From an uncultured Endomicrobiia bacterium (GTDB taxonomy: Bacteria > Elusimicrobiota > Endomicrobiia > DTEH01): 64,000 nucleotides of DNA. This document shows, one piece after another, positions 7,465 through 63,879 of the stretch. The stretch covers positions 66,801 to 130,800 of the forward strand of contig CALDDQ010000004.1 in assembly GCA_937936785.1 (NCBI GenBank), in the 5' to 3' direction. The notes below the pieces were generated by a model that saw only the letters and a list, made by a program, of their open reading frames with translations, was not told the DNA's origin and did no database searches. The stretch's first letter is position 1. Every line of letters begins with the position of its first letter. Position numbers and translations under genes: made by a program.

Positions 7465-7471
7465 ATTTTTT

Positions 7472-8437: not shown

Positions 8438-8532
8438 CTTTGTAATTTTACATTTTAAACTTGACCTTAGATTAAAAAAATTGTAATTCAAAAAGCTAAA
8501 AGGTTAGAAATTTTTATATCAGGGGTATAACT

Positions 8533-22596: not shown

Positions 22597-22601
22597 ACAA
22601 T

Positions 22602-23873
22602 ATGGACAAATTAATTATTCAAGGTGGTAAGAAATTAGAAGGAGAAATAAATATATCTGGAGCGAAAAATTCTGCATTACCAATACTTTTTGCTACCATG
22701 TTAACAGATGCAGATGTTGTGTTAGAAAATGTGCCTAAACTTATGGATATTTATGGTGCAATTTCTATAATAGAATATTTAGGCAAGAAAGTTGTTTGGT
22801 TAGGAAATACATTAAAAATTGTTTCAAGTAAAAGTATACCAAAAGAAGGAAAGTATGTTGTTGCACCATATGATTTAATTCGTAAGATGAGAGCAAGTTT
22901 TTTGATTTCAGGAGTTTTGTTAGCTAAAAACAAGAATATAAAAGTTGCTTTACCTGGTGGTTGTGCTATAGGGGTAAGACCTGTAGATATTCATATATCA
23001 GCTTTTGAACAGTTGGGTTGTAAACATTATTTGCAAGAAGGTTATGTGGTTTTTAATAGAGAAAAATTAAATTCTGCAAAGGTAAAGTTCAAATATCCAA
23101 GTGTTGGTGCGACAGAAAATGTTATGTTGTTAGCGAGTGGTATTGATGGAGAAACTATTATAGAGAACGCAGCACAAGAACCTGAAATTGTAGATTTGGC
23201 AAATTTTTTAAAAAAGATTGGAGTTAAAATAGTTGGAGATGGTAGCAATAAAATTAGTATATACGGGGCTAAAAAGTTTAATAATACAAAAATTGTTCAC
23301 AGAATTATTCCTGACAGAATAGAAACTGGCACATATGTCATTGCAGTTTCAGCGACCAAGGGTGAAGTAATATTAAAAAATGTAATATTTCAACACAATA
23401 AAACTTTGATAAAAAAACTAAAATCTTGTGGGATAAAAATATTTTTAGAAAATAATAGTATTTATATTAAGTCAACGAAAAAAATAAAATCTAAAAATAT
23501 TGTAACATCTCCATATCCTGGTTTTCCAACAGATTTACAGGCACAGTTTATGGTGTTAATGAGTTTGTCTAAGGGAAAAAGTGTAATTAAAGAAACAGTT
23601 TTTGAGAACAGATTTGTTCATGCTGCAGAACTACAACGTATGGGTGCTAATATAAGAATTAAAGGTAATAGTGCTTATATTTATGGTGTAGAAAAGTTAA
23701 TAGGTTGTCCTGTTATGGTATCAGATTTAAGAGCAGGAGCTGCACTTGTAATTGCAGGTCTCGCTGCTGAAGGTAAAACTATAATTAATAGAATATATCA
23801 TTTAGATAGAGGTTATGAGATGTTAGAACAAAAACTTTCAAAATTAGGAGCAAATATTAAAAGAATAAAATAA
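22602..23873 (+). CDS. murA: UDP-N-acetylglucosamine 1-carboxyvinyltransferase
   Basis: '[24 protein letters not shown]' and the catalytic-Cys region '[15 protein letters not shown]'. Confidence 0.95.
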
Positions 23874-23893
23874 AATTTTGTAAAATTAAACTT

Positions 23894-25099
23894 ATGGATA
23901 GATTATATTTTAAGGTAAATAAGATTATTTCTGAAGTTAAAAATTATGGTGATTTAGCAGTGGTAAAGTATACAAAAAAATTTGATAAAATTATTGATTT
24001 TGATAAAAGAAAAATAAAAGTTAAGGTTAAAGATATAAAAATAAAAGATGAGGATTTTATTTCGTCAATAAAATATGCAATAAACAATATAAAAAAGTTT
24101 CATTTAGAAGAAAATAAAAGAATAAAAAAGTCATGGAATATTTATTATGAAGGGATGTTTTTAGGTCAAAAGATCGTTCCTGTTGAAAGGGTTGGAATTT
24201 ATGTCCCTGGTGGTAAGTATGGGTTTAATTATATATCATCAATATTGATGTCTGTTATTCCGGCACAAATTGCAAAGGTAAAAAAAATAGTTGTTGTTAC
24301 GCCACCAGGAAATATTTCGGAAGAATTTATTTTTGTATGTAAATTGTTAGGTGTGAGAGAGATTTATGCAGTTGGTGGTGTTTGTGCAATTGCAGGGTTA
24401 GCTTTTGGTACTGATATTATTCCTAAAGTAGATCTAATAATTGGTCCGGGTAATATGTGGGTTACGGAAGCAAAACGACAATTGTATGGTGTTGTAGGAA
24501 TAGACTTGCTTGCAGGACCGTCAGAGGTGGTTGTTGTTGCAGATAAAAATTCAGATGTTAATGAAGTTGTGTATGAACTTTTAGCACAAGCAGAACATGA
24601 TAAAAATGCTAAGTGTGTATTAATAAGTTTAGATAAACTATTGATTAGTATAGTAAGATCAAAAATTAAAAGTTTGGATAAAAAATATTTAAAACAAATT
24701 AGTTTTATATTTTCTAAATCTATTTATGAAACAATAAATTTAATAAATACAATTTCGCCAGAACATTTAACATATTTGTCTGAGAACAATGTTGAAAAGA
24801 TAATAAGAGGAGTTATAAACGCAGGAGCAATTTTTTTAGGTAAACATGCTTCAACAGTTTTTGGGGATTATGTTGCAGGTCCTTCGCATATTTTACCAAC
24901 AAACAAAACTGCAAATTTTAGTTCTGGAGTTTCTGTTCAGACATTTATGAAAAAGATTAGTTTAGTAAAATTTGTAAACAAAAAGTTAACTTCAGTAATA
25001 AAATCAGCTTCTATAATTTCACAAAAAGAAGGAATGAAATTTCATAAATTAGCTGCTTTATCAAAAATTAAATATTATTCTGGGAGTGTCAATGAATAG
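23894..25099 (+). CDS. hisD: Histidinol dehydrogenase
   Basis: Reads as HisD-like; the C-terminal region contains 'DYVAGPSHILPT'. Confidence 0.88.
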   Translation: MDRLYFKVNKIISEVKNYGDLAVVKYTKKFDKIIDFDKRKIKVKVKDIKIKDEDFISSIKYAINNIKKFHLEENKRIKKSWNIYYEGMFLGQKIVPVERVGIYVPGGKYGFNYISSILMSVIPAQIAKVKKIVVVTPPGNISEEFIFVCKLLGVREIYAVGGVCAIAGLAFGTDIIPKVDLIIGPGNMWVTEAKRQLYGVVGIDLLAGPSEVVVVADKNSDVNEVVYELLAQAEHDKNAKCVLISLDKLLISIVRSKIKSLDKKYLKQISFIFSKSIYETINLINTISPEHLTYLSENNVEKIIRGVINAGAIFLGKHASTVFGDYVAGPSHILPTNKTANFSSGVSVQTFMKKISLVKFVNKKLTSVIKSASIISQKEGMKFHKLAALSKIKYYSGSVNE

Positions 25100-25676
25100 A
25101 AAAGTGAAATTATTAAGAAAAACAAAAGAAACTGTTATAAAACTAAATTTAAATTTGGATGGGAAAGGAAAAAGTAAAATAACGACAACAATACCTTTTT
25201 TTGATCATATGTTAGATTTGTTAGTTTTTCACAGTGGGATTGATCTTTTGCTAAATGCAAAAGGAGACACAGAAGTTGATGAACATCATTTGATTGAAGA
25301 TTTAGGTATATCATTAGGTATTGCTTTTAATAAAGCATTAAAGAATAAAAGAGGTATTGTGAGATATGCTGAGGTTTTGACACCTATGGACGAATCTTTA
25401 TCTTATGTCGCAATTGATATTTGTGGTAGAGGATATTTGAGTTATAAAATAAAATTTTTTCCTGAATATAAAAAATCAAATTTTGATTATAATTTGATAA
25501 AGGAGTTTTTGGTAGCATTTGTTAACAATGCAAAAATAACTTTACACATAAAAGTTTTAGAAGGAGAAAATAATCACCACATTTGTGAATCAGTATTCAA
25601 AAGTTTAGGAAGGGTTATTAAAAAAGCTATATTTATTGACACAAAAAGAATTCCTTCTAGCAAGGGGGTTTTATGA
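25086..25676 (+). CDS. hisB: Imidazoleglycerol-phosphate dehydratase
   Basis: 'DHMLDLL..HSGIDL', 'DEHHLIEDLGI' and 'NHHICESVFKSLG' motifs. Confidence 0.9.
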   Translation: MSMNRKVKLLRKTKETVIKLNLNLDGKGKSKITTTIPFFDHMLDLLVFHSGIDLLLNAKGDTEVDEHHLIEDLGISLGIAFNKALKNKRGIVRYAEVLTPMDESLSYVAIDICGRGYLSYKIKFFPEYKKSNFDYNLIKEFLVAFVNNAKITLHIKVLEGENNHHICESVFKSLGRVIKKAIFIDTKRIPSSKGVL

Positions 25677-26401
25677 TAATAATACCTGCAGTAGATTTAC
25701 ATCAAGGCAAATGTGTTCGTTTGACACAAGGAAAGTTTGATGAAGAAACAGTATATTCAACAGAGCCTGTTTTTATATCTCGTTTATGGCAGGCAAAAGG
25801 TGCTCAAAGGTTACATTTGATAGATTTAGATGGAGCGTATTGTGGCACAGTTCAACATTGGAATATAATAAAACAGATTCGTGAACAACTATCTATCATA
25901 ATAGAATTTGGTGGTGGAGTTAGAACTTTAAAGACTGTTGAGAAACTTGTAGCCATAGGTATAGATAAAATTATTATTAGCACGATAATGATTAGCAATC
26001 CTGTTGAAGGAAAAAAAATTTTGCAAAAATATAAAGATAAAATTATGTTAGCGATAGATGTTCGTGATGGTAAAGTAGCAATTGGTGGATGGAAAGAACA
26101 AACACCAATTAATGCAAAAGAGTTTATTAAAAATTTGGAAGATTTAGGTGTAGAAGAGATAATTTTAACTGATATTGTCAAAGAGGGAATGTTAGAAGGA
26201 ATAAATTTAGATACTATAACAGATCTTATAGAAAATACAAAATTTAAAATAATAATTTCAGGTGGTGTTACAACATTAGATGATTTGAAAAAAATAAAAA
26301 CTCTAGAATCGAAAGGTGTTTTTGGTGTAATAATAGGAAAAGCGTTTTATGCAGAAAAAATAAGTTTTGAAGATGCACGAAAAGTAGTTGAGGAAAAATA
26401 A
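25673..26401 (+). CDS. hisA: ProFAR isomerase HisA
   Basis: 'IIPAVDLHQGKCVRL' start. It overlaps hisB (ATGA). Confidence 0.88.
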   Translation: MIIIPAVDLHQGKCVRLTQGKFDEETVYSTEPVFISRLWQAKGAQRLHLIDLDGAYCGTVQHWNIIKQIREQLSIIIEFGGGVRTLKTVEKLVAIGIDKIIISTIMISNPVEGKKILQKYKDKIMLAIDVRDGKVAIGGWKEQTPINAKEFIKNLEDLGVEEIILTDIVKEGMLEGINLDTITDLIENTKFKIIISGGVTTLDDLKKIKTLESKGVFGVIIGKAFYAEKISFEDARKVVEEK

Positions 26402-26807
26402 TAATATGAATAAAAAAGTGATAGATTTTATAGAAAACATAAAATATGACGATAAAGGATTGGTGCCAGTAGTTGCACAGGATTATAATGATAATACAGT
26501 TTTAATGGTTGCTTTTATGAACAAGGAAGCTTTAATAAAAACTTTTGAAACTTTTAAGGTTCATTATTATAGCCGTTCACGAGGAAAATTATGGTTAAAA
26601 GGAGAAACTTCTGGCAATGTTCAGATTGTGAAAGAAATATATTTTGATTGTGATAAAGATTGTTTATTGGTAAAAATTGAACAAGTGGGTATTGCGAGTT
26701 GTCATACAGGACATAGAAGTTGTTTTTACAGAACCATATCTAAAGATGGAGAAATTTCTATAGTTGCAGAAAAAGTTTTTAATCCAGAAGATGTTTATAA
26801 AAAATAA
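26388..26807 (+). CDS. hisI: Phosphoribosyl-AMP cyclohydrolase (monofunctional HisI; no HisE domain)
   Basis: 'YYSRSRGKLWLKGETSGN' and 'DCDKDCLLVKIEQ...CHTG..SCF' motifs. The protein is only 139 aa. Confidence 0.85.
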   Translation: MRKNNNMNKKVIDFIENIKYDDKGLVPVVAQDYNDNTVLMVAFMNKEALIKTFETFKVHYYSRSRGKLWLKGETSGNVQIVKEIYFDCDKDCLLVKIEQVGIASCHTGHRSCFYRTISKDGEISIVAEKVFNPEDVYKK

Positions 26808-26811
26808 TAAA

Positions 26812-28299
26812 ATGTTAAATTTAAGTATAGAAGAAGTAAAAAAAATTGTAAAAAAATATTTACATAAAAAATGTGATGTAGTTGTGCCTTTATATAAAGA
26901 GATTTTAGTCGACACAGAAACGCCTGTATCTTTATTTTTAAAACTTGCTGTTGATGAAGAATACGCTTATTTATTAGAAAGTGCACAGACAAGTCTGCAT
27001 TGGGGACGGTATTCTTTTATATCATTTTCTCCAGCAAAACTTATTAAAATAGATAGTATAAGGGAATCTATTTTGCCAAGATTGAGACAAGAATTAAATA
27101 AATATTATGTTCCACAAGAGTTGGTAAAAAATTTGCCAAGATTTTTTGGCGGATTTGTTGGATATTTAAGTTATGAATTAGTTCACGAAATAGAACCAAA
27201 AGTTAAACGCCCGAAGAAAACATATTTGTGTTCATTTCCTGAGATTTTTTTTATGTTCAATTCTGTTACAATAATATTTGACCACTTTTTAAATAAGTTA
27301 AAAATAGTAAATTTAGTTATATCGGATAAAATTGAAAATATTGATGAGTTATATAGATTTTCGGAAGAAAAAATTGATCTTTTGATAAACAAAGTGTTTC
27401 AAAAAAAGTTAAATGAAAAAAGTTTGAAGTATAAAAAAAGTAACGAAAAAAATTTAATTAAAGAATATTATTCTAACATATCAAGAAAAAATTTTATTAA
27501 AAAAATAAAAAAGGCAATAGAATACATTAAAAAAGGAGATGTTATACAAACTGTAATTTCACGAAAATTAATGAAAAAAACTTCTGCAGATACTTTTGAC
27601 ATTTACAGAAGTTTAAGAATTATAAATCCATCCCCATATATGTTTTATCTCAAATTTAGTGATATGTGTTTAATAGGTTCTTCTCCTGAAATTCTTATAA
27701 GGAAAGAAGGAAATATTGTTGAAACAAAGCCTATTGCAGGTACAAGACCAAGAAGTGCAGATGAGATAAAAGATAAAAATTATGAAAAGGAACTAATAAA
27801 TTCTGAGAAAGAAAATGCAGAACATATAATGTTAGTAGATTTAGCAAGGAACGATCTGGGCAAAATTTCGGAGTATAAAACAATTTTTTTGCCTGAACTA
27901 AAAGTTATAGAACGATTTTCACATGTTATGCATATAGTGACTTCAGTTAAAGGTGTTTTGAGAAAAAAATATGATAGTATAGATGTATTATCAGCAGCGT
28001 TTCCTGCTGGTACTGTTAGTGGTGCGCCAAAGGTTCGTGCTATGCAGATAATTTCGCAGTTGGAAGAATATGTTAGAGGACCATATGCTGGTGCAGTTGG
28101 ATATTTTAGTTTAACAGGTAATATGGATATGGCGATTACAATAAGAACAATTGTTTATAAAGATAAAAAAGTTTTTATACAATCAGGGGCAGGAATAGTT
28201 GCAGATTCTATTCCTGAAAAAGAATATGATGAAACATTAAACAAAGCAAAAGCTCTAATGATCGCAATAAAAATGGCTGAAGTAAAAATTAAGGAATAA
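26812..28299 (+). CDS. trpE: Anthranilate synthase component I
   Basis: Chorismate-binding motifs 'SRKL', 'GSSPE' and 'IAGTRPR', and the 'GAVGYF' region. The ATG at 26812 follows the hisI stop and is preferred over the overlapping ORF start at 26764. Confidence 0.88.
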   Translation: MLNLSIEEVKKIVKKYLHKKCDVVVPLYKEILVDTETPVSLFLKLAVDEEYAYLLESAQTSLHWGRYSFISFSPAKLIKIDSIRESILPRLRQELNKYYVPQELVKNLPRFFGGFVGYLSYELVHEIEPKVKRPKKTYLCSFPEIFFMFNSVTIIFDHFLNKLKIVNLVISDKIENIDELYRFSEEKIDLLINKVFQKKLNEKSLKYKKSNEKNLIKEYYSNISRKNFIKKIKKAIEYIKKGDVIQTVISRKLMKKTSADTFDIYRSLRIINPSPYMFYLKFSDMCLIGSSPEILIRKEGNIVETKPIAGTRPRSADEIKDKNYEKELINSEKENAEHIMLVDLARNDLGKISEYKTIFLPELKVIERFSHVMHIVTSVKGVLRKKYDSIDVLSAAFPAGTVSGAPKVRAMQIISQLEEYVRGPYAGAVGYFSLTGNMDMAITIRTIVYKDKKVFIQSGAGIVADSIPEKEYDETLNKAKALMIAIKMAEVKIKE

Positions 28300-28301
28300 A
28301 A

Positions 28302-28907
28302 ATGATACTAATAATAGACAACTATGATTCTTTTACTTACAATCTTGTACAGTATTTAGGAGAATTATGTATTGAAAACGAAAGTGTTTCTCAACCAATA
28401 AAGGTTTATCGTAATGATAAAATAACTATATCAAAAATTAAAAGTTTACGACCAAAGTATATTATAATTTCGCCTGGTCCGTGTACTCCAAAGGAAGCTG
28501 GTGTTTCAGTCAAGGTGATAAAAACTTTTGCAACTAAAATACCTATTTTAGGTGTATGTTTAGGTCATGAATGTGTAGTGGAAGCATTTGGAGGTAAAAT
28601 TATTAAATCAAAGGAAATTTTTCATGGCAAAGTTTCAGAAATATTTCATGATAAAAAAACAATTTATAGTGGATTACCAAATCCTATTAAAGCTACAAGA
28701 TATCATTCATTGATTGCAGAAAAAAAAACTTTGCCAGATTGTTTAGAGATAACTTCGTGGACTAAAAATGGTATAATAATGGGAGTGCGACTTAAAAATA
28801 GTGATTTAAAGAAGTTTTGTGTTGAAGGAGTGCAGTTTCATCCAGAATCGATAATGACACCGGAAGGTAAAAAGTTGTTACTAAATTTCTTGATTTTAGG
28901 CAAGTAG
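28302..28907 (+). CDS. trpG: Anthranilate synthase component II (glutamine amidotransferase)
   Basis: 'ILIIDNYDSFTYNL', 'ILGVCLGHE' and 'VQFHPES' motifs. Confidence 0.9.
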   Translation: MILIIDNYDSFTYNLVQYLGELCIENESVSQPIKVYRNDKITISKIKSLRPKYIIISPGPCTPKEAGVSVKVIKTFATKIPILGVCLGHECVVEAFGGKIIKSKEIFHGKVSEIFHDKKTIYSGLPNPIKATRYHSLIAEKKTLPDCLEITSWTKNGIIMGVRLKNSDLKKFCVEGVQFHPESIMTPEGKKLLLNFLILGK

Positions 28908-28915
28908 AAAAAATT

Positions 28916-29851
28916 ATGGAAAAAAGAAAAGTTGTGGTTATAGACGATGCTGAATCAGTAGCTATTGCTATTCAATATTTATTAGAAACTATGGGTTATG
29001 AAGTTTATGTTGAAAACGATGGTGAAGCGGGTATAAAAAAAGTTTTTGAAGTAAGACCTGATTTGGTAATTTTAGACATAAACATGCCAAAAATGACTGG
29101 ATACGAAGTTGTTGATATAATGAGAAAGGAAGTTTCTACTATGAACACACCGATATTAATGATGTCTGGTTCTACAGATGAGATGGACGAGATTAAAGGG
29201 TTAGAATTAGGTGTAGATGGGTATATTACTAAACCGTTTAATAACGAACTATTTATTGCAAAACTTAAAGCTATATTGATGAGAGCACAACAAAATATTT
29301 CTGTAAACCCACTTACAATGCTTCCTGGTAATATTGCTATTAATAAAGAAATCGAACATAGAATTTTGTCAAAAACAAAATTTGCTGTAATATATACTGA
29401 TTTAAACAATTTTAAAAGTTTCAATGATTATTACGGTTTTGCACGTGGTGATGAAGTTATTAAACATACGGCTAATATTTTGGTTAACGCAATAAAAACA
29501 AAAGGTCACTATAGTGATTTTGTAGGACACATTGGTGGAGATGATTTTGTGGTAGTTTGTATGGTGGACAATGTGGAAAACATTTGTGAGACAATAATTA
29601 AAGATTTTGATAGTTCAATAATAAATTTTTACAATGAGGAAGAAAAAGTTAAGGGTTATATTGAAACTTACAATAGACAGGGAGAACTTAAAAAGTTTGG
29701 TATAATTTCAATAAGTTTATCAGTAGTAACAAATGTTAAACGCGAGATTAAACATATAGGTGAAATTTCTGAGATAAGTGCTGAATTAAAAAGTTATGTA
29801 AAACAATTTGGGAAAAGCAAGTATGTAATTGATAGAAGAGCGGGGACATAA
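28916..29851 (+). CDS. Response regulator with N-terminal REC and a C-terminal GGDEF-like domain carrying a GGDDF variant motif
   Basis: REC motifs 'VVVIDDAESV', 'DLVILDINMP' and 'DGYITKPF'. GGDEF-domain start 'NPLTMLPGN', and 'HYSDFVGHIGGDDFVVV' in place of RxxD...GG(D/E)EF. Confidence 0.85.
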   Translation: MEKRKVVVIDDAESVAIAIQYLLETMGYEVYVENDGEAGIKKVFEVRPDLVILDINMPKMTGYEVVDIMRKEVSTMNTPILMMSGSTDEMDEIKGLELGVDGYITKPFNNELFIAKLKAILMRAQQNISVNPLTMLPGNIAINKEIEHRILSKTKFAVIYTDLNNFKSFNDYYGFARGDEVIKHTANILVNAIKTKGHYSDFVGHIGGDDFVVVCMVDNVENICETIIKDFDSSIINFYNEEEKVKGYIETYNRQGELKKFGIISISLSVVTNVKREIKHIGEISEISAELKSYVKQFGKSKYVIDRRAGT

Positions 29852-29876
29852 TTTTTTATAAAAACAGGGTGAAAAT

Positions 29877-30914
29877 ATGATTAAAGATATGATACAGAAA
29901 ATTGTTAATAGAGAAAATTTATCTGAAAAGGATATGATAGAAGTTATGACAGAAATAATGTCAGGCCAGGCAACAGAATCGCAAATAGCATCGTTTATAA
30001 CTGCTTTAAGAATGAAAGGAGAAACTGTGGAAGAAATTACTGGTGCAGCAAAAGTTATGAAACAGTTTGCTACTCGTGTAGAAATTAAAAAACGAGTTTT
30101 AACAAATGTTAATTATGAAACAATTTTAGACACTTGTGGTACCGGCGGTGATTCAACTAAAACGTTTAACATTTCTACAGCGACTGCTTTTGTAGTATCA
30201 TCTTGTGATGTTTTAGTGGCGAAACATGGTAATAGGTCGGTATCTTCCTTATGTGGTTCTGCAGATGTCGTAGAACAACTCGGTATTAAGTTGGAGATAA
30301 CGAAAGATAAAGCAGAAAAATGTTTGTCAGAATTAGGAATAGTATTTTTATTTGCTCCGATTTGGCATAGTGCAATGAAATATGCGCTTGGTCCACGAAA
30401 ACAAATAGGTATTAGAACAATTTTTAACATTATAGGACCACTTACAAATCCTGCAGGTGCAAATGCACAAGTTTTAGGTGTTTATTCAAAAACTCTTTTA
30501 AAACCGATTGCTGAAGTATTAAAAAATTTAGGTTCTAAACATTCGTTTGTTGTTCATAGTGAAGATATGATGGACGAAATAAGTATTACTGGAAAAACTC
30601 ATATAGCAGAGTTAAAAAATGGTAGTATTTCGTTTTATGACATTGTCCCGGAGCAATTTGGTATAAAAAAATGTTCTATTGACGATTTGAAAGGTGCTGA
30701 TGCTAAAGAAAATGCAGAGATTATTTTAAGAATAGTTTCTGGTAAAGAGAATGGTCCAAAAATGGATGTTGTAATTTTAAATTCAGCATTTGCATTGGTT
30801 GCAGCAGGAAAGGTAAAAAGTATTGAGGAAGGTATAGTTTTAGCAAGAGATGTTATTAACAGAGGTTTGGTAATAGAAAAAATTAATATGTTAAAAGAAT
30901 ATACAAATGAATAA
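29877..30914 (+). CDS. trpD: Anthranilate phosphoribosyltransferase
   Basis: 'ILDTCGTGGDSTKTFNIST' and 'VAKHGNRSVSS' motifs. Confidence 0.9.
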   Translation: MIKDMIQKIVNRENLSEKDMIEVMTEIMSGQATESQIASFITALRMKGETVEEITGAAKVMKQFATRVEIKKRVLTNVNYETILDTCGTGGDSTKTFNISTATAFVVSSCDVLVAKHGNRSVSSLCGSADVVEQLGIKLEITKDKAEKCLSELGIVFLFAPIWHSAMKYALGPRKQIGIRTIFNIIGPLTNPAGANAQVLGVYSKTLLKPIAEVLKNLGSKHSFVVHSEDMMDEISITGKTHIAELKNGSISFYDIVPEQFGIKKCSIDDLKGADAKENAEIILRIVSGKENGPKMDVVILNSAFALVAAGKVKSIEEGIVLARDVINRGLVIEKINMLKEYTNE

Positions 30915-31698
30915 TTTGCATCCAGTATTAGATTCAATATTAGATAAAAAGAGGCATACTATTGCTCATAGAAAAACAATATTGCCAATAGGCAAAATTT
31001 TAAAAGATATTGAATTAAAAAAGAAAGAACATAGAAATTTTTTAAATTCAATAAAACAGGATAAAAAAATATCAATAATTGCAGAATGTAAACGTGCAAC
31101 GCCGTCTATGGGAATAATTAGAGAAAAATATAATTTAGAAAAGATTTTGTTAGAATATCAAAAAAATGATATAGCAGCTATTTCAATTTTAACCGAGGAA
31201 CATTTTTTTCACGGGGATTTATATCATTTATTTCAAGCTAAAAAAACAGTTTTTTTACCTGTGTTGAGAAAAGATTTTATAATTGATAAATATCAAATAT
31301 TTGAAAGTTTATTTTTTGGTGCTGATGCAATTTTGTTAATAAAAAAAATTTTAACTAAAAAAGAGATGTTAGAGTTTTATACAATTGCACGAGATTTAGG
31401 TTTAGAGGTTATCTTTGAAGTTACTAACAAAGATGAGATAGAAGAAGTTTTAGAACTAAATCCAAAAATTATAGGATTGAACAATCGTGATTTGGAAACA
31501 TTTGAAGTTGATGTCTATAAAACATTGAAATTAAGAAAATATGTTCCGGAAAATATTTGTTTAATTTCTGAAAGTGGAATAAAGTCTAAGTCGGATATGG
31601 AGTTGTTAAAAACTGCAAATGTAGATGCAGTTTTAATTGGAACACTTTTTATGCAGTCAAACAATATTACTCAAACAATAAATTCATTAAGAAATTAA
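30907..31698 (+). CDS. trpC: Indole-3-glycerol-phosphate synthase
   Basis: 'IIAECKRATPSMG', 'ISILTEEHFF.G' and 'GLNNRDLETFEVD' motifs. Confidence 0.9.
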   Translation: MNNLHPVLDSILDKKRHTIAHRKTILPIGKILKDIELKKKEHRNFLNSIKQDKKISIIAECKRATPSMGIIREKYNLEKILLEYQKNDIAAISILTEEHFFHGDLYHLFQAKKTVFLPVLRKDFIIDKYQIFESLFFGADAILLIKKILTKKEMLEFYTIARDLGLEVIFEVTNKDEIEEVLELNPKIIGLNNRDLETFEVDVYKTLKLRKYVPENICLISESGIKSKSDMELLKTANVDAVLIGTLFMQSNNITQTINSLRN

Positions 31699-31701
31699 TT
31701 T

Positions 31702-32394
31702 ATGGTAAAAGTAAAAATTTGTGGAATAACAAATAAAGAAGATGCTTTTTGGGCGTCAAGTTTAGGAGCAGATTTTATAGGGATAAATTTGTGCAAACAT
31801 TCTACAAGAAAGGTATCGCTAAAAACTGCAAAAGAAATTGTTAATTCATTACCAAAATATACTACAGCTGTATTAGTATTTGTTAATGAGAGAGAGGAAG
31901 ATATTGTTAAAATTGTAAATAAATTAAATGTTCAATATGTTCAGCTACATGGTGATGAGACAGAAGAGTTTTGTTCACAGTTAAAAATGAAGATTCCAAC
32001 AATAAAGATTATTAAAGTTATAAAAATAGTTTCAGATTTTACTGACGAAAATTTAGAAAAATCAACTATAATTAATGATTATGTAGAAAAGATAAAAAAT
32101 TTTGTCTCTAAAGTTGATTATATTTTATTTGATACATATATAGATAATAAAGAAGGTGGGACGGGAAAAGTTTTTGATTGGAATATATCTAAATTAGTGA
32201 AAGAAACTTTAGAAAAACAAAATTTTAAACTACAATTTTTTGTAGCAGGTGGACTTAATTCAGAAAATGTTAGTAAAGTTATAGAAGTTTTAGAACCGTT
32301 TGCGGTTGATGTTTCTTCTGGTATAGAGAGGTTACCAAGAAGGAAAGATTTTGAGCAAATGAAAAATTTTATAAGAAAGGTTAAAGGAAGTTAA
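31702..32394 (+). CDS. trpF: Phosphoribosylanthranilate isomerase
   Basis: 'VKVKICGITNKEDA' start and 'VQLHGDET'. Confidence 0.85.
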   Translation: MVKVKICGITNKEDAFWASSLGADFIGINLCKHSTRKVSLKTAKEIVNSLPKYTTAVLVFVNEREEDIVKIVNKLNVQYVQLHGDETEEFCSQLKMKIPTIKIIKVIKIVSDFTDENLEKSTIINDYVEKIKNFVSKVDYILFDTYIDNKEGGTGKVFDWNISKLVKETLEKQNFKLQFFVAGGLNSENVSKVIEVLEPFAVDVSSGIERLPRRKDFEQMKNFIRKVKGS

Positions 32395-32397
32395 GGT

Positions 32398-33213
32398 ATG
32401 ATTAAAAAAATAATTCTGTTGATAATTTTAATATTTTTATTTAACAAAAATATTGTTATTTCTAATAACGATATTGTGAAAAAACCAGTTGCTATAGTAG
32501 TAAAAGTAAGGGGTGAAACATATATTATTCGGAAAAAAGAAAAATTAAAAGCTAACATTTATATGCCATTATATATTCAGGATAAAATTCAAACAAAATC
32601 TGCTTCCACATTGGAACTAATTTTTGATAATGGTGTAAGTTTTAAGATTGAAGAAAATTGTGATATCGAGATAAAAATGATAACAACAACGGTTATGGAA
32701 GGAAAAAAACTTTCTTCAGTTGAATTAGAAATTGATGTTGATAATGGTGGTCTTTTAGTAGATGCAAAAACTATTGATAGTGAGTATAAATTAACTAAGA
32801 TGAAAGTTTATACTCCAACTGCGACTGCTGCAATACGTGGCACAGTGTTTTATACATTAGTCAAAGATGATGGTAGAACAGATTTAGCCGTATTTGAAGG
32901 AGAAGTTGAAGGATATGTTGGAAAGAAAGAAGAATTAGATGATTTAGATATTAAAACAAAAATTATAAAAAATCAGCAAACAAATATCACTGAACTAACA
33001 ACAGTTCCGCCAGTAGTATCTTTATCATCTGAAATGAAAGAGTATAGAGATACGGTGGTGAGAAAATTTGTTGAAGAAGTTCAATTATATAGAAAAAAAA
33101 TTGATACTTTAAAACAAAAAAGACAAGATTGGATAAACAAAAATAAGTCAGACTTTGAAAAAGATATAGAAGATAAGAAAAAGAATTTTAGAAAAAAATA
33201 TTTAAATGAATAA
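32398..33213 (+). CDS. FecR-domain secreted protein
   Basis: Signal peptide. 'TPTATAAIRGTVF' is a typical FecR-domain motif. Confidence 0.55.
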   Translation: MIKKIILLIILIFLFNKNIVISNNDIVKKPVAIVVKVRGETYIIRKKEKLKANIYMPLYIQDKIQTKSASTLELIFDNGVSFKIEENCDIEIKMITTTVMEGKKLSSVELEIDVDNGGLLVDAKTIDSEYKLTKMKVYTPTATAAIRGTVFYTLVKDDGRTDLAVFEGEVEGYVGKKEELDDLDIKTKIIKNQQTNITELTTVPPVVSLSSEMKEYRDTVVRKFVEEVQLYRKKIDTLKQKRQDWINKNKSDFEKDIEDKKKNFRKKYLNE

Positions 33214-33232
33214 ATAGAGCAGGAGATTAAAA

Positions 33233-33466
33233 ATGGATCAAAAAATAAAAGATAAAATTAAACAAAAACTTGAAGAAGTAAAACCGATGTTACAACGTGA
33301 TGGTGGAGATTTAGAATTAGTAGAAATTACTGATGATGGTGTTGTGAAAATAAAACTTATAGGGATGTGTGCTCATTGTGCAATGTCTACTATGACAGTA
33401 AAAATGGGAATAGAAAGTGTTTTAAAAAAAAGTTTTTCAGAAGTGAAATCAGTAGAAAATGTTTAA
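33233..33466 (+). CDS. NifU-like (Nfu C-terminal domain) Fe-S cluster scaffold protein
   Basis: 77 aa, with 'LQRDGGDLELVEI...IKLIGMCAHCAMST'. Confidence 0.8.
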   Translation: MDQKIKDKIKQKLEEVKPMLQRDGGDLELVEITDDGVVKIKLIGMCAHCAMSTMTVKMGIESVLKKSFSEVKSVENV

Positions 33467-34313
33467 AATTTGTTTTTATGACAAGCAACTGAATAAATAC
33501 TTTAAAAATTCTAAGATAAAAATTAAAATATTCTCTGTCCATTATGACTACATAAATTTAATTACACAAGACAATATAATAATAACAATTATAAAAGAAC
33601 ACTTACAGAATTTACCTTTTTCAAGTCATAGCATAGTTTTAGATAAAAAAAGTTTAACAGAAGATTTTGATTTTAGAGACAAGATAATTCTAAACGATAA
33701 AATATGCTTTAATAAAACAAAAATAATTTTTTTTAAAAGTAATATAATATTTGATTTACATGGTTCCAAAGCACAAAAATTGCCACAGATAAAAATAAAA
33801 AATTGTAATATAAACCGTCAGTTATTAAATTATTTTTTGAAGTGTTTAATTTTAAGAAAAAAGATGATTACGAGAAATACCTTAGTTTTAAGTATAAAAT
33901 TTTTCAATAATTTAAACATAGATAGTTACATAGAAACGATGATAAAAAAATTTATAGGTTTAGGGACAGGTTCAACGCCAGAATTTGACGATTTCATCTG
34001 TGGTGTATTGACTTCATTTTATATTTTTGATAAAACAAAATCCTTGTCGGAAAAAGGTAGAAGTAAGTTTATGCTAATAAAAAAAACATTAATTAAACAC
34101 AAAGAAAAAACAACTTTACTAAGTCAAAACTTTATCACACAAGTTTGTAATTCAAAATATCCTTTGTTAATAGTTAGATTTGTGGAAAGTTTGTTTAATA
34201 ATAATATTTGCAAATCAGAAAAAATTTTTAATTTAATTTTAAATAAAGGCAATAATTCTGGATGGTGGTTTTTGTATGGATTTTTAAAAACGATGAAATT
34301 AAAAAAAGTTTAA
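33459..34313 (+). CDS. Hypothetical protein, candidate DUF2877 (YlbF-like) family
   Basis: 284 aa. 'GLGTGSTPEFDDF' resembles the conserved Gly/Thr-Pro-x-GDD motif recalled for DUF2877. The gene sits directly upstream of an FdrA homolog. The call rests on genomic context plus a weak motif. Confidence 0.4.
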   Translation: MFKICFYDKQLNKYFKNSKIKIKIFSVHYDYINLITQDNIIITIIKEHLQNLPFSSHSIVLDKKSLTEDFDFRDKIILNDKICFNKTKIIFFKSNIIFDLHGSKAQKLPQIKIKNCNINRQLLNYFLKCLILRKKMITRNTLVLSIKFFNNLNIDSYIETMIKKFIGLGTGSTPEFDDFICGVLTSFYIFDKTKSLSEKGRSKFMLIKKTLIKHKEKTTLLSQNFITQVCNSKYPLLIVRFVESLFNNNICKSEKIFNLILNKGNNSGWWFLYGFLKTMKLKKV

Positions 34314-34328
34314 AAAGGATGATAAAAA

Positions 34329-35882
34329 ATGAAAAACATAATAAAACCAAATTGTTTTTATGATTCTATACTGTTGATGCAAATAGCCAGTGTTTTATCA
34401 AAACAATATTCAAGTGAAGTTACACTTATGATGGGAACGGATGCAAACAAATCTTTGTTAAGAGAGAGAAAAATGTTAACTTCAGATGGAGAAAAAGCTT
34501 CTGTTAACGATTTGATAATATGTTTTGATAAAAATGTTGATGAAAAAAAAGTTTTTGATACTATAGAAACTTTTTCAAAATCTTCTTCAAATCAAAAACA
34601 AGATTTAATTGTAGAAGACAAAATACCTCAGAATACAAACTTGATTTTAGTGTCTATTCCTGGCGAGTTTGTTTTTTATGAAGTTAAAAAAATAATAGAA
34701 GAATTTGTGTCGCAAGGAGAATCAGTTTTAGGACATAAACTTTGTATTTTTATATTTAGTGACAATGTTTCTATTGAGGAAGAAAAAGAACTAAAATTAT
34801 CAGCCTTAAAAAAAAATATTTTAATAATGGGACCGGATTGTGGAACAGCAGTTGTAAATGGTTTAGGATTAGGATTTTCAAACAATATCAGAACAATTTT
34901 TGATAATAACAATATTTCTAAACAAGGTATTGGAATAATTAGTGCAGGAGGTACAGGATTACAAGCAATAATGACTATGATACACAACTTTGGATATACC
35001 ATATCTCAGGCAATAGGTACAGGAAGTAGAGATTTGTCTGAAGAGGTTGGGGGTATAACATTTCTGGAAAGTATAAAATATTTGGAAAAAGATCCTTACA
35101 CTAAAACTATAATATTATTTTCAAAACCACCTTCGGAAAAAGTAGTAAAAAAAATAACTGAGTATATATCTAAAAATTGTAGAAAAATGTATGTTTTAAA
35201 CTTGTTAGGTTTAAATAAGAAACAAGAGGTTAAAAATATTTTTTTTGCACAAACTATGCAAGAAGCAGTTGTTAAAGCAATTAAAGTTATTAACCCAAAG
35301 TTTGAAATAAGAAATAAAATAACAGTATCAACATCTTTTTGGGTAAACAAATTAAAAAAAACTAACAGAAAATATGTCAGAGGATTATTTTCAGGAGGTT
35401 CTTTGTGTGAAGAAACTGCTATAGTGCTAAAAAAATATATTGGTGATGTTTATTCAAATATCCCTATTGAAAAAAATCATAAATTACCAAATCCGTGGAA
35501 AAGTTTTAAAAACACAATAATAGATTTAGGAGATGACATATTTACTCGTGGTAAACCACATCCAATGATAGATTTTACATTTAGAAAAGAAAGAATGATA
35601 GAAGAATCAAAAGATAAAGAAGTTGCTATAATAATTTTTGATTTAGTTTTAGGTTGGGGATCTAATATAGAACCAATAAAAGAAATAAGAGATACAATAA
35701 AACTATCCATAAAAAATTCAAATTCGCAGATACTATTTTGTGCAATAATTGTTGGTACAGAAAAAGATGTGCAAAATTATGCCAATATAGAGAGGCAGTT
35801 AAAAAAATTAGGTGTTATGACATTTAATTCTAATGTTACTATGTCAGAATTTGTAGGAAAAATTTTGCAGGATTTGGGGTAA
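34329..35882 (+). CDS. fdrA: FdrA-like protein (succinyl-CoA-synthetase-alpha-like CoA-binding fold)
   Basis: The N-terminus 'YDSILLMQIASVL' matches the FdrA family's DSV.LM signature, and the downstream segments are Gly-rich. Size is 517 aa. Confidence 0.75.
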   Translation: MKNIIKPNCFYDSILLMQIASVLSKQYSSEVTLMMGTDANKSLLRERKMLTSDGEKASVNDLIICFDKNVDEKKVFDTIETFSKSSSNQKQDLIVEDKIPQNTNLILVSIPGEFVFYEVKKIIEEFVSQGESVLGHKLCIFIFSDNVSIEEEKELKLSALKKNILIMGPDCGTAVVNGLGLGFSNNIRTIFDNNNISKQGIGIISAGGTGLQAIMTMIHNFGYTISQAIGTGSRDLSEEVGGITFLESIKYLEKDPYTKTIILFSKPPSEKVVKKITEYISKNCRKMYVLNLLGLNKKQEVKNIFFAQTMQEAVVKAIKVINPKFEIRNKITVSTSFWVNKLKKTNRKYVRGLFSGGSLCEETAIVLKKYIGDVYSNIPIEKNHKLPNPWKSFKNTIIDLGDDIFTRGKPHPMIDFTFRKERMIEESKDKEVAIIIFDLVLGWGSNIEPIKEIRDTIKLSIKNSNSQILFCAIIVGTEKDVQNYANIERQLKKLGVMTFNSNVTMSEFVGKILQDLG

Positions 35883-35915
35883 TTAAAATTATATTATCTA
35901 CAGGGAGCAAAAAAA

Positions 35916-37343
35916 ATGAAACAGTGTTCATCTACAAAACTTAAAGTTGCGAATTTAGGTGTGAGATGGTTTTATGAAAGTATTTTAAAACAAAAAAATA
36001 TTGATGTTGTTCATATAAACTGGTCTCCAAAAGGTAAGACAAAAAATGTTTATCGTTTATTGGACAAATTATATAAAAATAAAAATTTGCAAAAAAAGAT
36101 TGATGTTGCGAACAAAGTTGTAATTGACAAAATTTCTTCTTCAGCACCATTTTTAGTTGGTATAGAACAAGCATACAAAGTTGTTCCCGAGATGAATAAG
36201 TTTACAATTTTACATGCGGGACCACCAATAGAATATGAAAAAATGTGTGGTCCGATGAAAGGGGCAGTTTTAGGTGCACTTATGTATGAAGGAATAGCAA
36301 AAGATAAATTTGAAGCAGAAAAAATTGTTTTGAGTGGAAAAATTAAGTTTGACTCTTGTCATCATCATAATATGGTAGGACCAATGGCAGGGGTTGTTTC
36401 AGCTTCAATGCCAGTATGGATTTTAAAAAACTTAACTTTTAATAACTATGCTTATACAACACTTAACGAAGGTTTAGGGAAAGTATTACGTTTTGGTGCG
36501 TATAGTAAAGAAGTAATAAAACATCTTAAATGGATGGAAGAAATTTTATTTCCAGTTTTGAAAAAAGTTATAAAATTAATAACAAAAAAAAGTTATGGTA
36601 TAGATATAAAAACCATAACCGCTCAAGCATTAACTATGGGTGATGAGTGCCATAATAGAAATGTTGCAGCAACAAATTTGTTTTTAAAAGAAATATTACC
36701 CTATATGATAGAATTAAATCTAAACAAAAAGATATTTTTAGATATCATAAAATTTATTTCCTCAAACCCACATTTTTATTTAAATATTTCAATGCCTGCG
36801 TGCAAATGTAGCACAGATATTGTAGAAGGGATAAGATTTTCGTCAGTGATATATACAATGGCACGAAATGGAGTTAATTTTGGGATAAGAGTTTCCGGGT
36901 TACCAAAAAAATGGTTTGTTGCACCATCTGGTATGCCAAAAGGATTATATTTTAGCGGATATAAAGAATCTGATGGCAATCCTGATCTCGGTGATTCTAC
37001 AATTTCAGAAGTTGTTGGTATTGGAGCATTTGCAATGGCTTGTGCACCTGCGATTGTAAAGTTTGTTGGTGGTGTTGCAGATGATGCTAAAAAATATACT
37101 TTAGATATGTACAAAATTTGTATTGGTGAACATAAGAATTTTTTAATACCACAATTTAATTTTAGAGGAACACCGTTGGGAGTTGACATAATTAAGGTTT
37201 TAGAAACAGGGATTTCGCCCATAATAAATACCGGAATTGCACACAAAGAACCTGGAATAGGACAAATTGGTGCTGGGATACTTTCAGCTCCGATGGAATG
37301 TTTTATTACTGCATTTGAAGAATTTATGAACGAATATAGTTGA
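35916..37343 (+). CDS. DUF1116 (YlbE-like) protein
   Basis: 475 aa. The call comes from its position after fdrA, as in the E. coli fdrA–ylbE–ylbF cluster. No signature motif was confidently recalled. Confidence 0.55.
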   Translation: MKQCSSTKLKVANLGVRWFYESILKQKNIDVVHINWSPKGKTKNVYRLLDKLYKNKNLQKKIDVANKVVIDKISSSAPFLVGIEQAYKVVPEMNKFTILHAGPPIEYEKMCGPMKGAVLGALMYEGIAKDKFEAEKIVLSGKIKFDSCHHHNMVGPMAGVVSASMPVWILKNLTFNNYAYTTLNEGLGKVLRFGAYSKEVIKHLKWMEEILFPVLKKVIKLITKKSYGIDIKTITAQALTMGDECHNRNVAATNLFLKEILPYMIELNLNKKIFLDIIKFISSNPHFYLNISMPACKCSTDIVEGIRFSSVIYTMARNGVNFGIRVSGLPKKWFVAPSGMPKGLYFSGYKESDGNPDLGDSTISEVVGIGAFAMACAPAIVKFVGGVADDAKKYTLDMYKICIGEHKNFLIPQFNFRGTPLGVDIIKVLETGISPIINTGIAHKEPGIGQIGAGILSAPMECFITAFEEFMNEYS

Positions 37344-37478
37344 TAGTGTTTAGATAAATTATTATTTGAACTAAAAGGTTTGATTTTATTTTTAAGTTTT
37401 TTTTGCTAAAAAATATACGCAAATAAACTTTTATTATAAAAAATATTCTGAAAACATAAAAATAACATTAACCAAATA

Positions 37479-38864
37479 ATGGAGATAATTATGAAAGAAA
37501 AAAAGATATTGTTGTTAGAAAAAGAAATACCACAAAAGTGGTATAATATAACTGCTGATTTACCTGGTCAAATACCACCACCATTACATCCTGTAACAGG
37601 AGAACCTATTGGTCCACAAGATTTATCTAAAATATTTCCTATGGGTCTTATTATGCAGGAAGTTTCACAGGAAAGATGGATAGAAATACCTGATGAAATT
37701 TTAAGAGTATATAACATATGGCGGCCAACACCTTTAGTTCGCGCATATGAATTAGAAAAATTTTTAAATACACCTGCAAGAATATATTACAAAAACGAAA
37801 GTGTATCTCCAGCAGGAAGTCACAAACCCAACACAGCAGTTGCTCAAGCATATTATAACAAACAAGAAGGAGTGAAACGTTTAACTACAGAGACAGGCGC
37901 AGGACAATGGGGTTCATCATTAGCTTTTGCGTGTAACATTTTTGGATTACAATGTACAGTTTATATGGTAAAAGTTAGTTACCAGCAAAAACCGTTTCGT
38001 CGATCACTAATGCAAGTTTGGGGTGCGGAAGTTTTTGCTTCGCCTACGGAAAGAACCAATGCTGGAAAAAGTGTTTTGTCTAAAGATCCAAATTCACCTG
38101 GTAGTTTAGGTATTGCAATTTCTGAAGCTGTAGAAGATGCATCTACGCATGATGATACTAAATATACTTTAGGTAGTGTATTAAATCATGTAATGTTGCA
38201 TCAGACAATTGTAGGGCTTGAAGTTCAGAAACAATTATCAATTGCCGGTGAAAAACCGGATATTTTGATAGGTTGTGTTGGTGGAGGAAGTAACTTTAGT
38301 GGATTTATATTTCCCTTCGTTGCAGATAAAATTTTAGGTAAAAATAACATAAAATTTTTAGCTGTGGAACCTACTGCATGTCCTACATTAACAAAAGGAG
38401 AATATACTTACGATTATGGCGATTCTGTAGGTTTAGCCCCATTAATAAAGATGTATACTTTAGGTCACAACTTTATGCCAGCAAAAATTCATGCTGGTGG
38501 ATTAAGATATCATGGTGATTCTCCTCAATTATGTTTTTTAGTTAATAAAAAGGTTGTAGATGCAGTTGCGGTATCACAAAAACCAGTTTTTGATGCAGCA
38601 ATAATTTTTGCAAAAACTGAAGGTATAATACCTGCTCCTGAGTCAGCTCATGCAATAAGAGTCGCAATTGATGAAGCGTTGAAATGTAAACAAACTAAAG
38701 AAGAAAAATGTATTGTTTTTAATCTAAGTGGACATGGACATTTTGATCTATCTGCTTATGATCAATACATAGAGGGTAAATTGGAAGATTATGAGTATCC
38801 AGAACAAGAAATTAGGAAAAATTTAGAAGAAATTAAAAATATGGTTAAGAAAAAAGATTTTTAG
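37479..38864 (+). CDS. trpB: Tryptophan synthase beta-like protein, TrpB2 (long form)
   Basis: 461 aa with an extended N-terminus, the PLP-lysine motif '[14 protein letters not shown]', and 'GCVGGGSNF'. The true start may be the ATG at 37491. Confidence 0.88.
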
Positions 38865-63641: not shown

Positions 63642-63879
63642 CTAAATATGTTGCTGTAGTATTTAATTAACTTTAATATCAAACTAAGATATTATAATTA
63701 AGACAACGTTTTAAACATTTTAATTCTGAGATAAAGAAAAAATTATTTCCATTCATATAAAAAAGATATCTTTATAATATAAACTGATAAATTCAACTAA
63801 AAATTATATGTTTGGTTTGAAATAATAATAAAACTTTATTTTTAAATTTTATATGTATATAAAAAATGTTACCAGAATA

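Follow-up and report, generated by a model that had tools for sequence, protein, structure and literature searches.

A response-regulator gene within a trp operon

This analysis concerns a response-regulator gene located between trpG and trpD in a 64-kb stretch of DNA from an uncultured Endomicrobiia bacterium, referred to throughout as the window (Table 1). The gene product joins a phospho-receiver (REC) domain to a GGDEF-type output domain whose active-site loop reads GGDDF and has a histidine two residues upstream (His-x-GGDDF). An earlier note, prepared from the sequence alone, described it as a response regulator with a degenerate GGDEF-like domain that is co-transcribed with tryptophan biosynthesis genes and might tie second-messenger output to tryptophan or anthranilate flux. 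The results given below retain the gene and its embedding, replace the notion of degeneracy with that of a conserved subfamily and lend no support to the metabolic tie.

Table 1. Coordinates in the window of the regulator gene, its domains and the surrounding trp genes (ORF, open reading frame; AF2, AlphaFold2; aa, amino acids; nt, nucleotides; PLP, pyridoxal phosphate)
Feature	Coordinates	Strand	Evidence and remarks
Regulator gene (REC plus His-x-GGDDF-type GGDEF), 311 aa, ATG start	28916..29851	+	ORF call, Pfam, homologues, AF2 model
REC domain, aa 6-117	28931..29266	+	Pfam; D10/D11 pocket, D54 at nt 29075-29077, S84, Y103, K106
Linker helix, aa 110-127, REC to output domain	29243..29296	+	DSSP on AF2 model; like WspR, DgcR
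His-x-GGDDF-type GGDEF domain, aa 131-308	29306..29839	+	Pfam, alignments, predicted full fold
GGDDF active-site-loop motif, aa 207-211	29534..29548	+	Sequence
trpE (anthranilate synthase I)	26764..28299	+	Pfam Chorismate_bind, Anth_synt_I_N; NCBIfam TIGR00564
trpG (glutamine amidotransferase subunit)	28302..28907	+	Pfam GATase 2.2e-53
trpD	29877-30914	+	Pfam
trpC	30907-31698	+	Pfam
trpF	31702-32394	+	Pfam
FecR-domain protein, N-terminal hydrophobic segment	32398..33213	+	Pfam FecR 3.5e-10; 3 nt after trpF
TrpB2-type (TrpB-like PLP enzyme) gene	37479..38864	+	NCBIfam NF009057 and TIGR01415, 742 bits

Both domains of the regulator score above their Pfam cut-offs. Response_reg (PF00072) spans residues 6-117 (E=3e-25; 89 bits versus a cut-off of 30.2) and matches profile positions 1-110 of 111, and GGDEF (PF00990) spans residues 132-225 (E=1.8e-15; 57.5 bits versus 23.8) and matches positions 5-104 of 161 only. 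The protein scores 111 bits with the NCBIfam PleD-family model, below the cut-off of 474. The phosphorylation residues of the receiver, read from the sequence and listed in Table 1, form a complete set, and D11, D54 and K106 are invariant in an alignment of 25 family members. The phospho-acceptor D54 lies in ILDINMP (residues 52-58), and the receiver is thus intact, as first described. Its top sequence matches in the PDB are the receiver domains of PhoP, YycF and PleD. The motifs originally read in the output domain are also present, with NPLTMLPGN at residues 131-139, HYSD at 198-201 and GGDDF within GHIGGDDF at 204-211; further landmarks are D162, K167, N170, D179, R254, K292/K296, S301 and the DRR of residues 306-308. 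HYSD occupies the exact position of the RxxD inhibitory site (I-site), its Asp being separated from the first Gly of GGDDF by five residues.

The gene is real and under selection. Its homologues number 3112 at E<=0.001 among 5.8 billion proteins searched, and comparison with a 78%-identical relative (L086) gives a ratio of nonsynonymous to synonymous substitution rates (dN/dS) of ~0.1; on these two grounds the gene is not a chance ORF. Calculated separately for the same pair, dN/dS is 0.107/0.947 for REC and 0.204/2.3 for the GGDDF domain, the latter with a saturated dS. Both domains are under purifying selection in the clade of trp-embedded regulators, and the dN/dS values together with the invariant residues rule out a pseudogene or decaying gene. 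The GC content (0.299) and third-position GC content (GC3, 0.199) fall inside the range of the neighbouring genes, and for this reason the regulator is not regarded as a recent horizontal acquisition. An antisense ORF of 139 aa at 29005-29424 (-) lies entirely within the regulator gene and was treated as an AT-rich by-product.

The surrounding genes are arranged in the order prmC-murA-hisD-hisB-hisA-hisI-trpE-trpG-regulator-trpD-trpC-trpF-FecR and either overlap or are separated by gaps of at most 25 nt. The genes hisD-hisB-hisA-hisI lead directly into trpE (23894-28299) with overlaps or gaps of a few nucleotides, which suggests that the his and trp genes form a fused transcription unit. As listed, the trpE ORF shares 44 nt with hisI; an ATG at 26812, directly after the hisI stop, is likely to be the true trpE start. 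Gaps of 8 nt and 25 nt separate the regulator from the trpG stop (28907) and the trpD start (29877), respectively, and Pfam and NCBIfam confirm the flanking genes, which bears out the tight embedding reported at first. No terminator-like site adjoins the regulator gene, and promoter-like sites are not in excess. Given these short gaps, the lack of a flanking terminator-like site and the lack of promoter enrichment, the regulator is likely to be co-transcribed with the his-trp genes, as had been proposed. An Rfam scan detected no trp leader, T-box, attenuator or other regulatory RNA near the operon; the sole Rfam match in the window is a tmRNA gene at 63250-63644 (+) (RF00023, 162.8 bits).

The window has a GC content of 27.7%, and nearly all of its ORFs of at least 150 aa lie on the + strand. 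Elsewhere in the window the identified genes have unrelated housekeeping functions, and because the regulator sits in such a packed one-strand array, its adjacency to the trp genes carries little functional information. The MurA encoded in the window is 62-64% identical to proteins of 'Endomicrobia bacterium' and 56% identical to the MurA of Endomicrobium proavitum, which points to a member of the Elusimicrobiota resembling Endomicrobia as the source. A hidden Markov model (HMM) derived from 15 cognate kinases detected no histidine-kinase core in any frame of the 64 kb, tblastn with a CheA and a histidine kinase as queries gave no such core either and no che genes occur there, which extends the previous statement that no kinase lies nearby.

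Conservation and predicted fold of the His-x-GGDDF domain

The closest 120 homologues are nearly all REC-GGDEF proteins of ~310 aa with 40-77% identity to the window protein, accompanied by a few longer forms and two fragments; every ~310-aa protein among them consists of REC plus GGDEF. They originate from Elusimicrobia, Omnitrophota, Clostridia (Acetivibrio saccincola) and other groups, and all except two (118 of 120) carry GGDDF preceded by His-x. Searching the isolated output domain against 1.84 billion cluster representatives yields 3095 matches at E<=1e-10 and 840 at E<=1e-30, the latter amounting to approximately 840 clusters at 50% identity. Among the 148 GGDDF motifs found in the 148 best-scoring representatives, 145 have the histidine two residues upstream. 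A scan of GTDB produced at least 596 confirmed family loci, and the phyla among those listed include Elusimicrobia, Omnitrophota, Planctomycetes, Chloroflexota, Bacillota, Actinomycetota (Acidimicrobiia), Acidobacteriota and others.

Alignments of the family reveal invariant or near-invariant features along the whole domain: NPLTxLPGN; Y-x-D162-L-x-N-F166-K167-x-x-N170-D-x-Y-G-F175-x-x-G-D179; F-x-G-H205-[IVL]-G-G-D-D-F211; and, towards the C-terminus, F231-D232, R254, K292, K296, S301 and D-R-R308. Invariant columns include D162, F166, K167, N170, G178, D179, G204, H205, G207-F211, R254, K296, S301 and R308. The tetrad at the I-site position varies among the 120 homologues (KKGD, NSRD, QKGD and others); its fourth residue is commonly Asp, and an Arg-first tetrad occurs in a minority (e.g. 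RKGD in 4). GH[IVL]GGDDF marks a large, ancient GGDEF subfamily that is present in many phyla and has no I-site. Since the loop is under strong family-wide constraint, 'degenerate' is the wrong term for it, and the substitution of R by H that had been noted at the I-site is not a specific change, as the family as a whole has no conserved RxxD.

The AF2 model, which was built from the family alignment, has a predicted local distance difference test score (pLDDT) of 91, with averages of 83-98 for ten-residue blocks over residues 131-310. The predicted topology is that of a full GGDEF fold (b1-a1-a2-b2-b3-a3-b4-b5-b6-a4-b7), and the best PDB matches found by Foldseek are WspR (3bre), DgcR (6zxm/6zxb) and PleD, with E-values from 4e-22 to 2e-18. 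Individual residues were compared by means of alignments to PDB cyclases and a canonical GGEEF domain, which cover the first half of the domain; the family profile matches PDB cyclases over approximately the first 108 of 183 positions only. The PleD residues that we take to be the counterparts of the window residues are D327, K332, N335, D344, R366 and E371. The metal-binding Asp on b1 (D327) is kept as D162, which is invariant and aligned with the 'D-I/L-D' Asp. Also kept are the phosphate contact K332 (K167), the guanine-binding pair N335/D344 (N170/D179) and the acidic metal-binding residue at loop position 3, which is the invariant D209. N170 and D179 lie within 'FKSFNDYYGFARGDEV', aligned to 'FKxxNDxxGHxxGDxxL' of the PDB cyclases; in the family alignments N170 never varies, and D179 is conserved either fully or to at least 90%. 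A candidate for the phosphate-binding Lys is the invariant K296, as its position at the end of predicted helix a4 would suggest. Inspection of the position that carries Ser in Hypr-type domains (the equivalent of PleD D344), a check proposed in the earlier note, found Asp (D179). The domain is for that reason not of the Hypr type, and a reading as a cyclic GMP-AMP (cGAMP) synthase of that type is ruled out.

Genomic contexts of the family and of the trp placement

The REC-GGDDF protein of ~310 aa is the commonest architecture of the family, with 51 of the 148 best-scoring representatives measuring 280-345 aa. Domains that co-occur with GGDDF in the 77 representatives longer than 345 aa are REC (40), HAMP (28), EAL (18), CBS (6), MshEN (2), HisKA (2), HD-GYP (1) and RibD (1, in P0475). 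The HAMP-containing long members are consistent with sensor-HAMP-GGDDF proteins, and some proteins have the N-terminal sensor region of a partner kinase fused directly to GGDDF. The fusions to EAL (18 of 77), HD-GYP and MshEN place the domain in cyclic di-GMP (c-di-GMP) signalling. In one member, P0376 (642 aa), a single polypeptide contains REC-HxGGDDF and, after it, a canonical GGEEF domain whose I-site is RESD, which argues that the two GGDEF types are not redundant. Three proteins of ~750-790 aa (P0406, P0482 and P0504) have a second GGDDF near residue 80-100 with no preceding His, which may belong to a different GGDEF-like domain; for P0406, EAL, CBS and HxGGDDF are confirmed by Pfam.

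Gene neighbourhoods were examined for the best 80 of the at least 596 GTDB loci, with neighbouring ORFs called by a crude longest-ORF rule. Of 60 species-level loci, 19 have a histidine kinase, in many cases with GAF or HAMP, as the next gene upstream and 7 have rpe there; immediately downstream (61 loci), ribD occurs in 9 and another REC protein in 8. Twelve loci share an operon in the order FIST, GAF-type histidine kinase, REC-GGDDF (L005, L007-L011, L017, L024, L029, L067, L069 and L075). A 33%-identical member in L136 (2209-4223) is followed by GDT1 and STAS-PilZ genes, the only PilZ neighbour noticed; PilZ is a c-di-GMP receptor domain.

In the Actinomycetota, including Acidimicrobiia, a regulator of this family is found between rpe, ~13 nt upstream, and ribD-ribBA at approximately 22 loci (L018 9325-12196, L020, L028, L043, L049, L051 and others). 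A predicted protein of 713 aa, P0475, joins REC-GGDDF to RibD. The rpe-regulator-ribD arrangement is a second, independent embedding in a biosynthetic context. Riboflavin synthesis begins from GTP, which is also the presumed ligand of the GGDDF domain.

The trp placement recurs in three related lineages. At 77% identity, L081/L082 have the order regulator-trpD-trpC-trpF-FecR-NifU-TrpB2; at 78%, L086 has trpE-trpG-regulator-trpD-trpC; and at 57%, L085 has trpG-regulator-trpD-trpC-trpF-FecR-NifU, preceded at the contig edge by a gene for which the label trpE is doubtful. A neighbour-joining tree unites the window protein and these three lineages (57-78% identity) in one clade. The sister clade, at 50-56% identity, is located at the ends of CheW-CheA(REC)-MCP-CheB-CheR clusters (MCP, methyl-accepting chemotaxis protein; L083, L167 and L168) in genomes of ~38-43% GC, and this clade alone, not the window gene, is encoded in the cheA/cheW/mcp/cheB/cheR setting of Wsp-type regulators. 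Five related trpD operons were sampled in addition (L169-L173, TrpD 67-72% identical); these have the core trpD-trpC-trpF-(FecR)-NifU with no trpE-trpG-regulator upstream. None of the approximately 160 more distant family loci is a trp operon. The survey suggested in the earlier note accordingly gives a divided answer, in that REC-GGDEF genes do recur in trp operons of relatives, so that the case is not one of absence from them all, and do so solely in the three lineages of one small clade. The embedding is a single event that has been stable in one clade; it is no one-off of this genome, and it does not extend to the family or to Endomicrobia trp operons at large.

The layout of L169 and L170 is murA-hisD-hisB-leuA-like-ilvD-trpD, from which hisA-hisI-trpE-trpG-regulator can be recognised as a variable cassette between hisB and trpD. 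Spacings around the regulator are larger in L086 (~185 nt between trpG and regulator, 1637-1825) and in L085 (138 nt between regulator and trpD, 2167-2306), and internal promoters are for this reason possible there. In L171 and L172, which have no trpE-trpG-regulator, a divergent gene at 5435-5809 (-), ~190 nt upstream of trpD, encodes a single-domain receiver of 124 aa. Four further loci were considered as trp neighbours and rejected, since none of them contains a trp operon. In L029 the candidate is a chorismate-binding gene, which lies ~3 kb upstream and in the opposite orientation; L105 and L107 each carry, ~6 kb away and likewise on the other strand, a GATase gene with 28% identity; and the TrpB2-like gene of L136 comes ~1.1 kb downstream, with GDT1 and STAS-PilZ in between.

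These distributions bear on the proposal that the regulator couples second-messenger output to tryptophan or anthranilate flux, either through its level of expression or by sensing an intermediate. Four contigs, at 57-78% identity, retain the position between trpG and trpD with the gene under purifying selection, the regulator occurs only where trpE-trpG is also present at the locus, a second signalling-type gene (FecR) follows trpF, and the rpe-regulator-ribD embedding and the RibD fusion of P0475 provide a parallel in Actinomycetota. Nevertheless, Pfam identifies no ligand-binding domain besides REC and the nucleotide domain, the five relatives run trpD-trpC-trpF with no regulator, the ~160 other family loci include no trp operon, no trp leader or T-box was found by Rfam, and the near-zero-spacing one-strand series from prmC to trpE makes adjacency uninformative. 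Coupling to flux is thus left with no support from the surveyed loci and is judged improbable. The trp position is regarded instead as hitch-hiking in a tight one-strand genome and not as evidence of tryptophan sensing or control.

The FecR gene is a second non-biosynthetic gene embedded in the trp operon of this clade. Its product has weak NCBIfam similarity to Leptospira LipL45 and Lsa33. The gene also follows trpF in L081 (3410-4156), L085 (4816-5592), L171 (8558-9409), L172 (8544-9407) and L173 (5368-6231); it is present in L171-L173 without the regulator and missing in L169 and L170. Between the FecR and TrpB2 genes of the window, positions 33459-37343 (+) encode AllH, an FdrA/AllF-like protein of the coenzyme A-ligase type and AllG, with AllH, AllF and AllG being oxamate carbamoyltransferase-type genes. 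L173 has AllH and AllF at the same place (6474-8888), and L081 has none of them. The TrpB2 gene is the only trpB-like gene of the trp cluster. Neither trpA nor a classical trpB is among the annotated genes at 21754-38864, a region in which no search aimed at trpA was made, and the last step of tryptophan synthesis must be encoded elsewhere or work differently.

A feedback-free cyclase as the favoured reading, and the closest known systems

The reading favoured here is that the regulator is an orphan, phosphorylation-activated and feedback-free nucleotide cyclase derived from a Wsp-like output; its co-transcription with the his-trp genes would stem from the site it came to occupy in a compact genome. 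We give it about an even chance of being correct. It builds on an ORF with two recognised domains, a full set of receiver residues, retained metal-, guanine- and phosphate-binding residues, a predicted GGDEF fold, an invariant motif, purifying selection and signalling contexts, and from these we infer the following scheme for the kinase, dimerisation, catalysis and product. A kinase encoded elsewhere in the genome would phosphorylate D54; its nearest relatives sit downstream of a Wsp-like CheA pathway, and a GAF or HAMP histidine kinase serves those further removed. Together with its long linker helix, the receiver would dimerise, as in WspR, DgcR and PleD, so that two GGDDF domains could meet on GTP and convert it to a cyclic dinucleotide, most probably c-di-GMP. 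No product feedback would be expected, because the family has no RxxD I-site. The placement of the regulator between trpG and trpD arose once, in a low-GC lineage resembling Endomicrobia, in which the hisA-hisI-trpE-trpG-regulator block stands upstream of the conserved trpD-trpC-trpF core.

Several observations weigh against this reading. The alignment to PleD that had been recommended at the outset, while retaining the residues described above, also exposes three changes in the catalytic region: loop position 4, the catalytic Glu (PleD E371), is Asp (D210); the Arg that precedes x-GGDEF (PleD R366) is replaced by H205, an invariant His in the family; and the conserved His of 'YGH' is replaced by Phe (F175). 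The accepted consensus for active loops is [G/A/S]G[D/E]E[F/Y] (PMC8835794), from which Asp at position 4 departs. The second half of the GGDDF domain gives no sequence alignment to canonical cyclases even with profile methods, so a counterpart of the second phosphate-binding Arg, that of 'GRN', is not identifiable; the candidate column, four residues after K296, is variable, and S301 is invariant. The combination of a dual-GGDEF protein (P0376) with fusions to EAL and HD-GYP is a pattern also typical of regulatory, non-catalytic GGDEF domains. No His-x-GGDDF member with measured activity was found in the literature searched, and the HMM and tblastn searches placed no partner kinase in the 64-kb window. 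Finally, the trp position has been kept over 57-78% identity, which could reflect selection instead of inertia.

Much of the same evidence suits a different proposal, in which His-x-GGDDF is not a cyclase at all and instead forms a GTP-sensing or dimerising module, with REC-GGDDF proteins acting in trans on c-di-GMP enzymes or other partners. The occurrence of REC-HxGGDDF upstream of EAL, of REC-HD-GYP and of the canonical GGEEF domain with an I-site in P0376 fits partnerships in trans, and the loop position off the active consensus and the replaced Arg and 'YGH' His point in the same direction. The term 'GGDDF' was located in only four relevant papers. PA3258, Bordetella DdpB and a Streptomyces EAL-GGDDF protein were considered as potential characterised relatives, and membership in the subfamily is not claimed for any of them. 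For PA3258 of Pseudomonas aeruginosa, c-di-GMP levels were not raised (PMC8835794); it is probably outside the subfamily, as its GGDDF is N-terminal (I112, A166) and comparable N-terminal motifs have no His. For the dual-domain proteins with GGDDF in Bordetella and Streptomyces, no activity as a cyclase is on record (PMC12805831, PMC6205966). Against a module of this kind, the loops of regulatory GGDEF domains usually drift, whereas this subfamily has kept its loop and its metal- and base-binding residues almost unchanged in many phyla; GGDDF is apparently the sole output in the REC-GGDDF and HAMP proteins; and the I-site, through which non-catalytic GGDEF receptors bind c-di-GMP, is missing. 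An enzymatic role is favoured because the domain is usually the sole output, and a regulatory non-catalytic role stays open because of the fusions to canonical enzymes. Overall, the non-cyclase proposal is considered unlikely.

The divergent C-terminal half also invites the suggestion of a distinct Asp-Asp chemistry, comparable to that of the Cas10 GGDD palm, with a cyclic or linear oligonucleotide other than c-di-GMP as product. In its favour, the invariant GGDD(F) is accompanied by H205, R254, S301, R308, F231/D232 and D243, which have no canonical counterpart, and a few members have weak, sub-threshold Pfam matches to Cas10-Cmr2_palm2. Nevertheless, the guanine-specifying N170/D179 are retained just as they are in c-di-GMP cyclases; WspR, DgcR and PleD have the closest folds; the fusion partners EAL, HD-GYP and MshEN are c-di-GMP-specific; and PADLOC reports only a weak match, to the REC region. 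A Cas10 or defence relationship was rejected, given that the window protein has no Cas10 match in Pfam and that P0017 scores 20.4 bits against a cut-off of 27, with two other members sub-threshold. We regard a chemistry of this type as improbable. A bolder combination, in which a catalytically distinct, phylum-spanning clade (making another product, or cyclising without feedback by an altered metal or acid-base chemistry) became part of the his-trp unit so that its messenger tracks the expression of amino-acid biosynthesis, is scarcely more probable.

The distinction between these readings and the favoured feedback-free cyclase matters beyond the present locus. Censuses of c-di-GMP signalling usually score GGDEF activity by the loop motif alone, and GGDDF is normally binned as inactive. 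The GH[IVL]GGDDF subfamily nevertheless provides the sole output of two-component, Wsp-like, NosP-like and HAMP-sensor pathways. If His-x-GGDDF domains are active, many genomes contain more cyclases than have been counted, among them a class free of product inhibition; if inactive, they form a novel type of conserved output that binds nucleotides. The trp-operon and rpe-ribD placements are natural cases for asking whether a regulator is tied to biosynthetic expression, with the trp placement at present only a lineage-specific curiosity.

The literature contains neither a GGDEF regulator in a trp operon nor a characterised member of this family, as far as our searches found, and comparison is therefore made with more distant systems. 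GSU1937 of Geobacter sulfurreducens is a catalytically active Hypr GGDEF enzyme with a GGDDF loop (PMC8835794) and the only published demonstration that such a loop is competent. Its base position carries the Hypr Ser, its N-terminus forms a transmembrane domain, and only a chimera showed activity (PMC8835794), whereas the window protein has D179 at the base position and a REC input. In the NosP-NosK-NosR pattern of nitric-oxide-sensing systems, the regulator carries a c-di-GMP-metabolising output, which in Burkholderia NosR is a degenerate HD-GYP and not a GGDEF domain (PMC12570481). The order of these genes is matched by the 12 FIST-kinase-REC-GGDDF loci of the family; the window gene has no FIST or kinase neighbour.

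Closer in layout are three REC-GGDEF proteins with known structures. PleD of Caulobacter (1w25/2v0n) is a phosphorylation-activated, REC-containing GGDEF protein, and family members resembling it, of ~430-450 aa with a C-terminal GGDDF, have two REC stretches where scanned (e.g. P0017). PleD has a GGEEF loop, R366 and the I-site R359xxD362, in place of which the window protein has GGDDF, H205 and HYSD. DgcR of Leptospira biflexa (6zxb/6zxc/6zxm) is a small Rec-GGDEF cyclase of similar size, with chains of 293-318 residues; it matches the predicted fold at E-values of ~1e-19 to 5e-20 and matches the sequence over REC and the first half of GGDEF, yet with only ~20% identity and with a C-terminal half-domain of the window protein that cannot be aligned by sequence. 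The entry titles describe crystals of DgcR with c-di-GMP and of an 'I-site mutant', whereas the window family has no I-site. WspR of P. aeruginosa (PA3702; 3bre) has a GGEEF loop, an Arg before the loop and an RxxD I-site, which set it apart from the window protein with its GHIGGDDF, no I-site and a gene inside a trp operon away from che genes. It nonetheless shares with that protein the REC-GGDEF arrangement and a long helical linker, it is the best Foldseek match (E=4e-22), and it is encoded with the Wsp che cluster, just as the sister clade of the window protein stands at the ends of CheW-CheA(REC)-MCP-CheB-CheR clusters.

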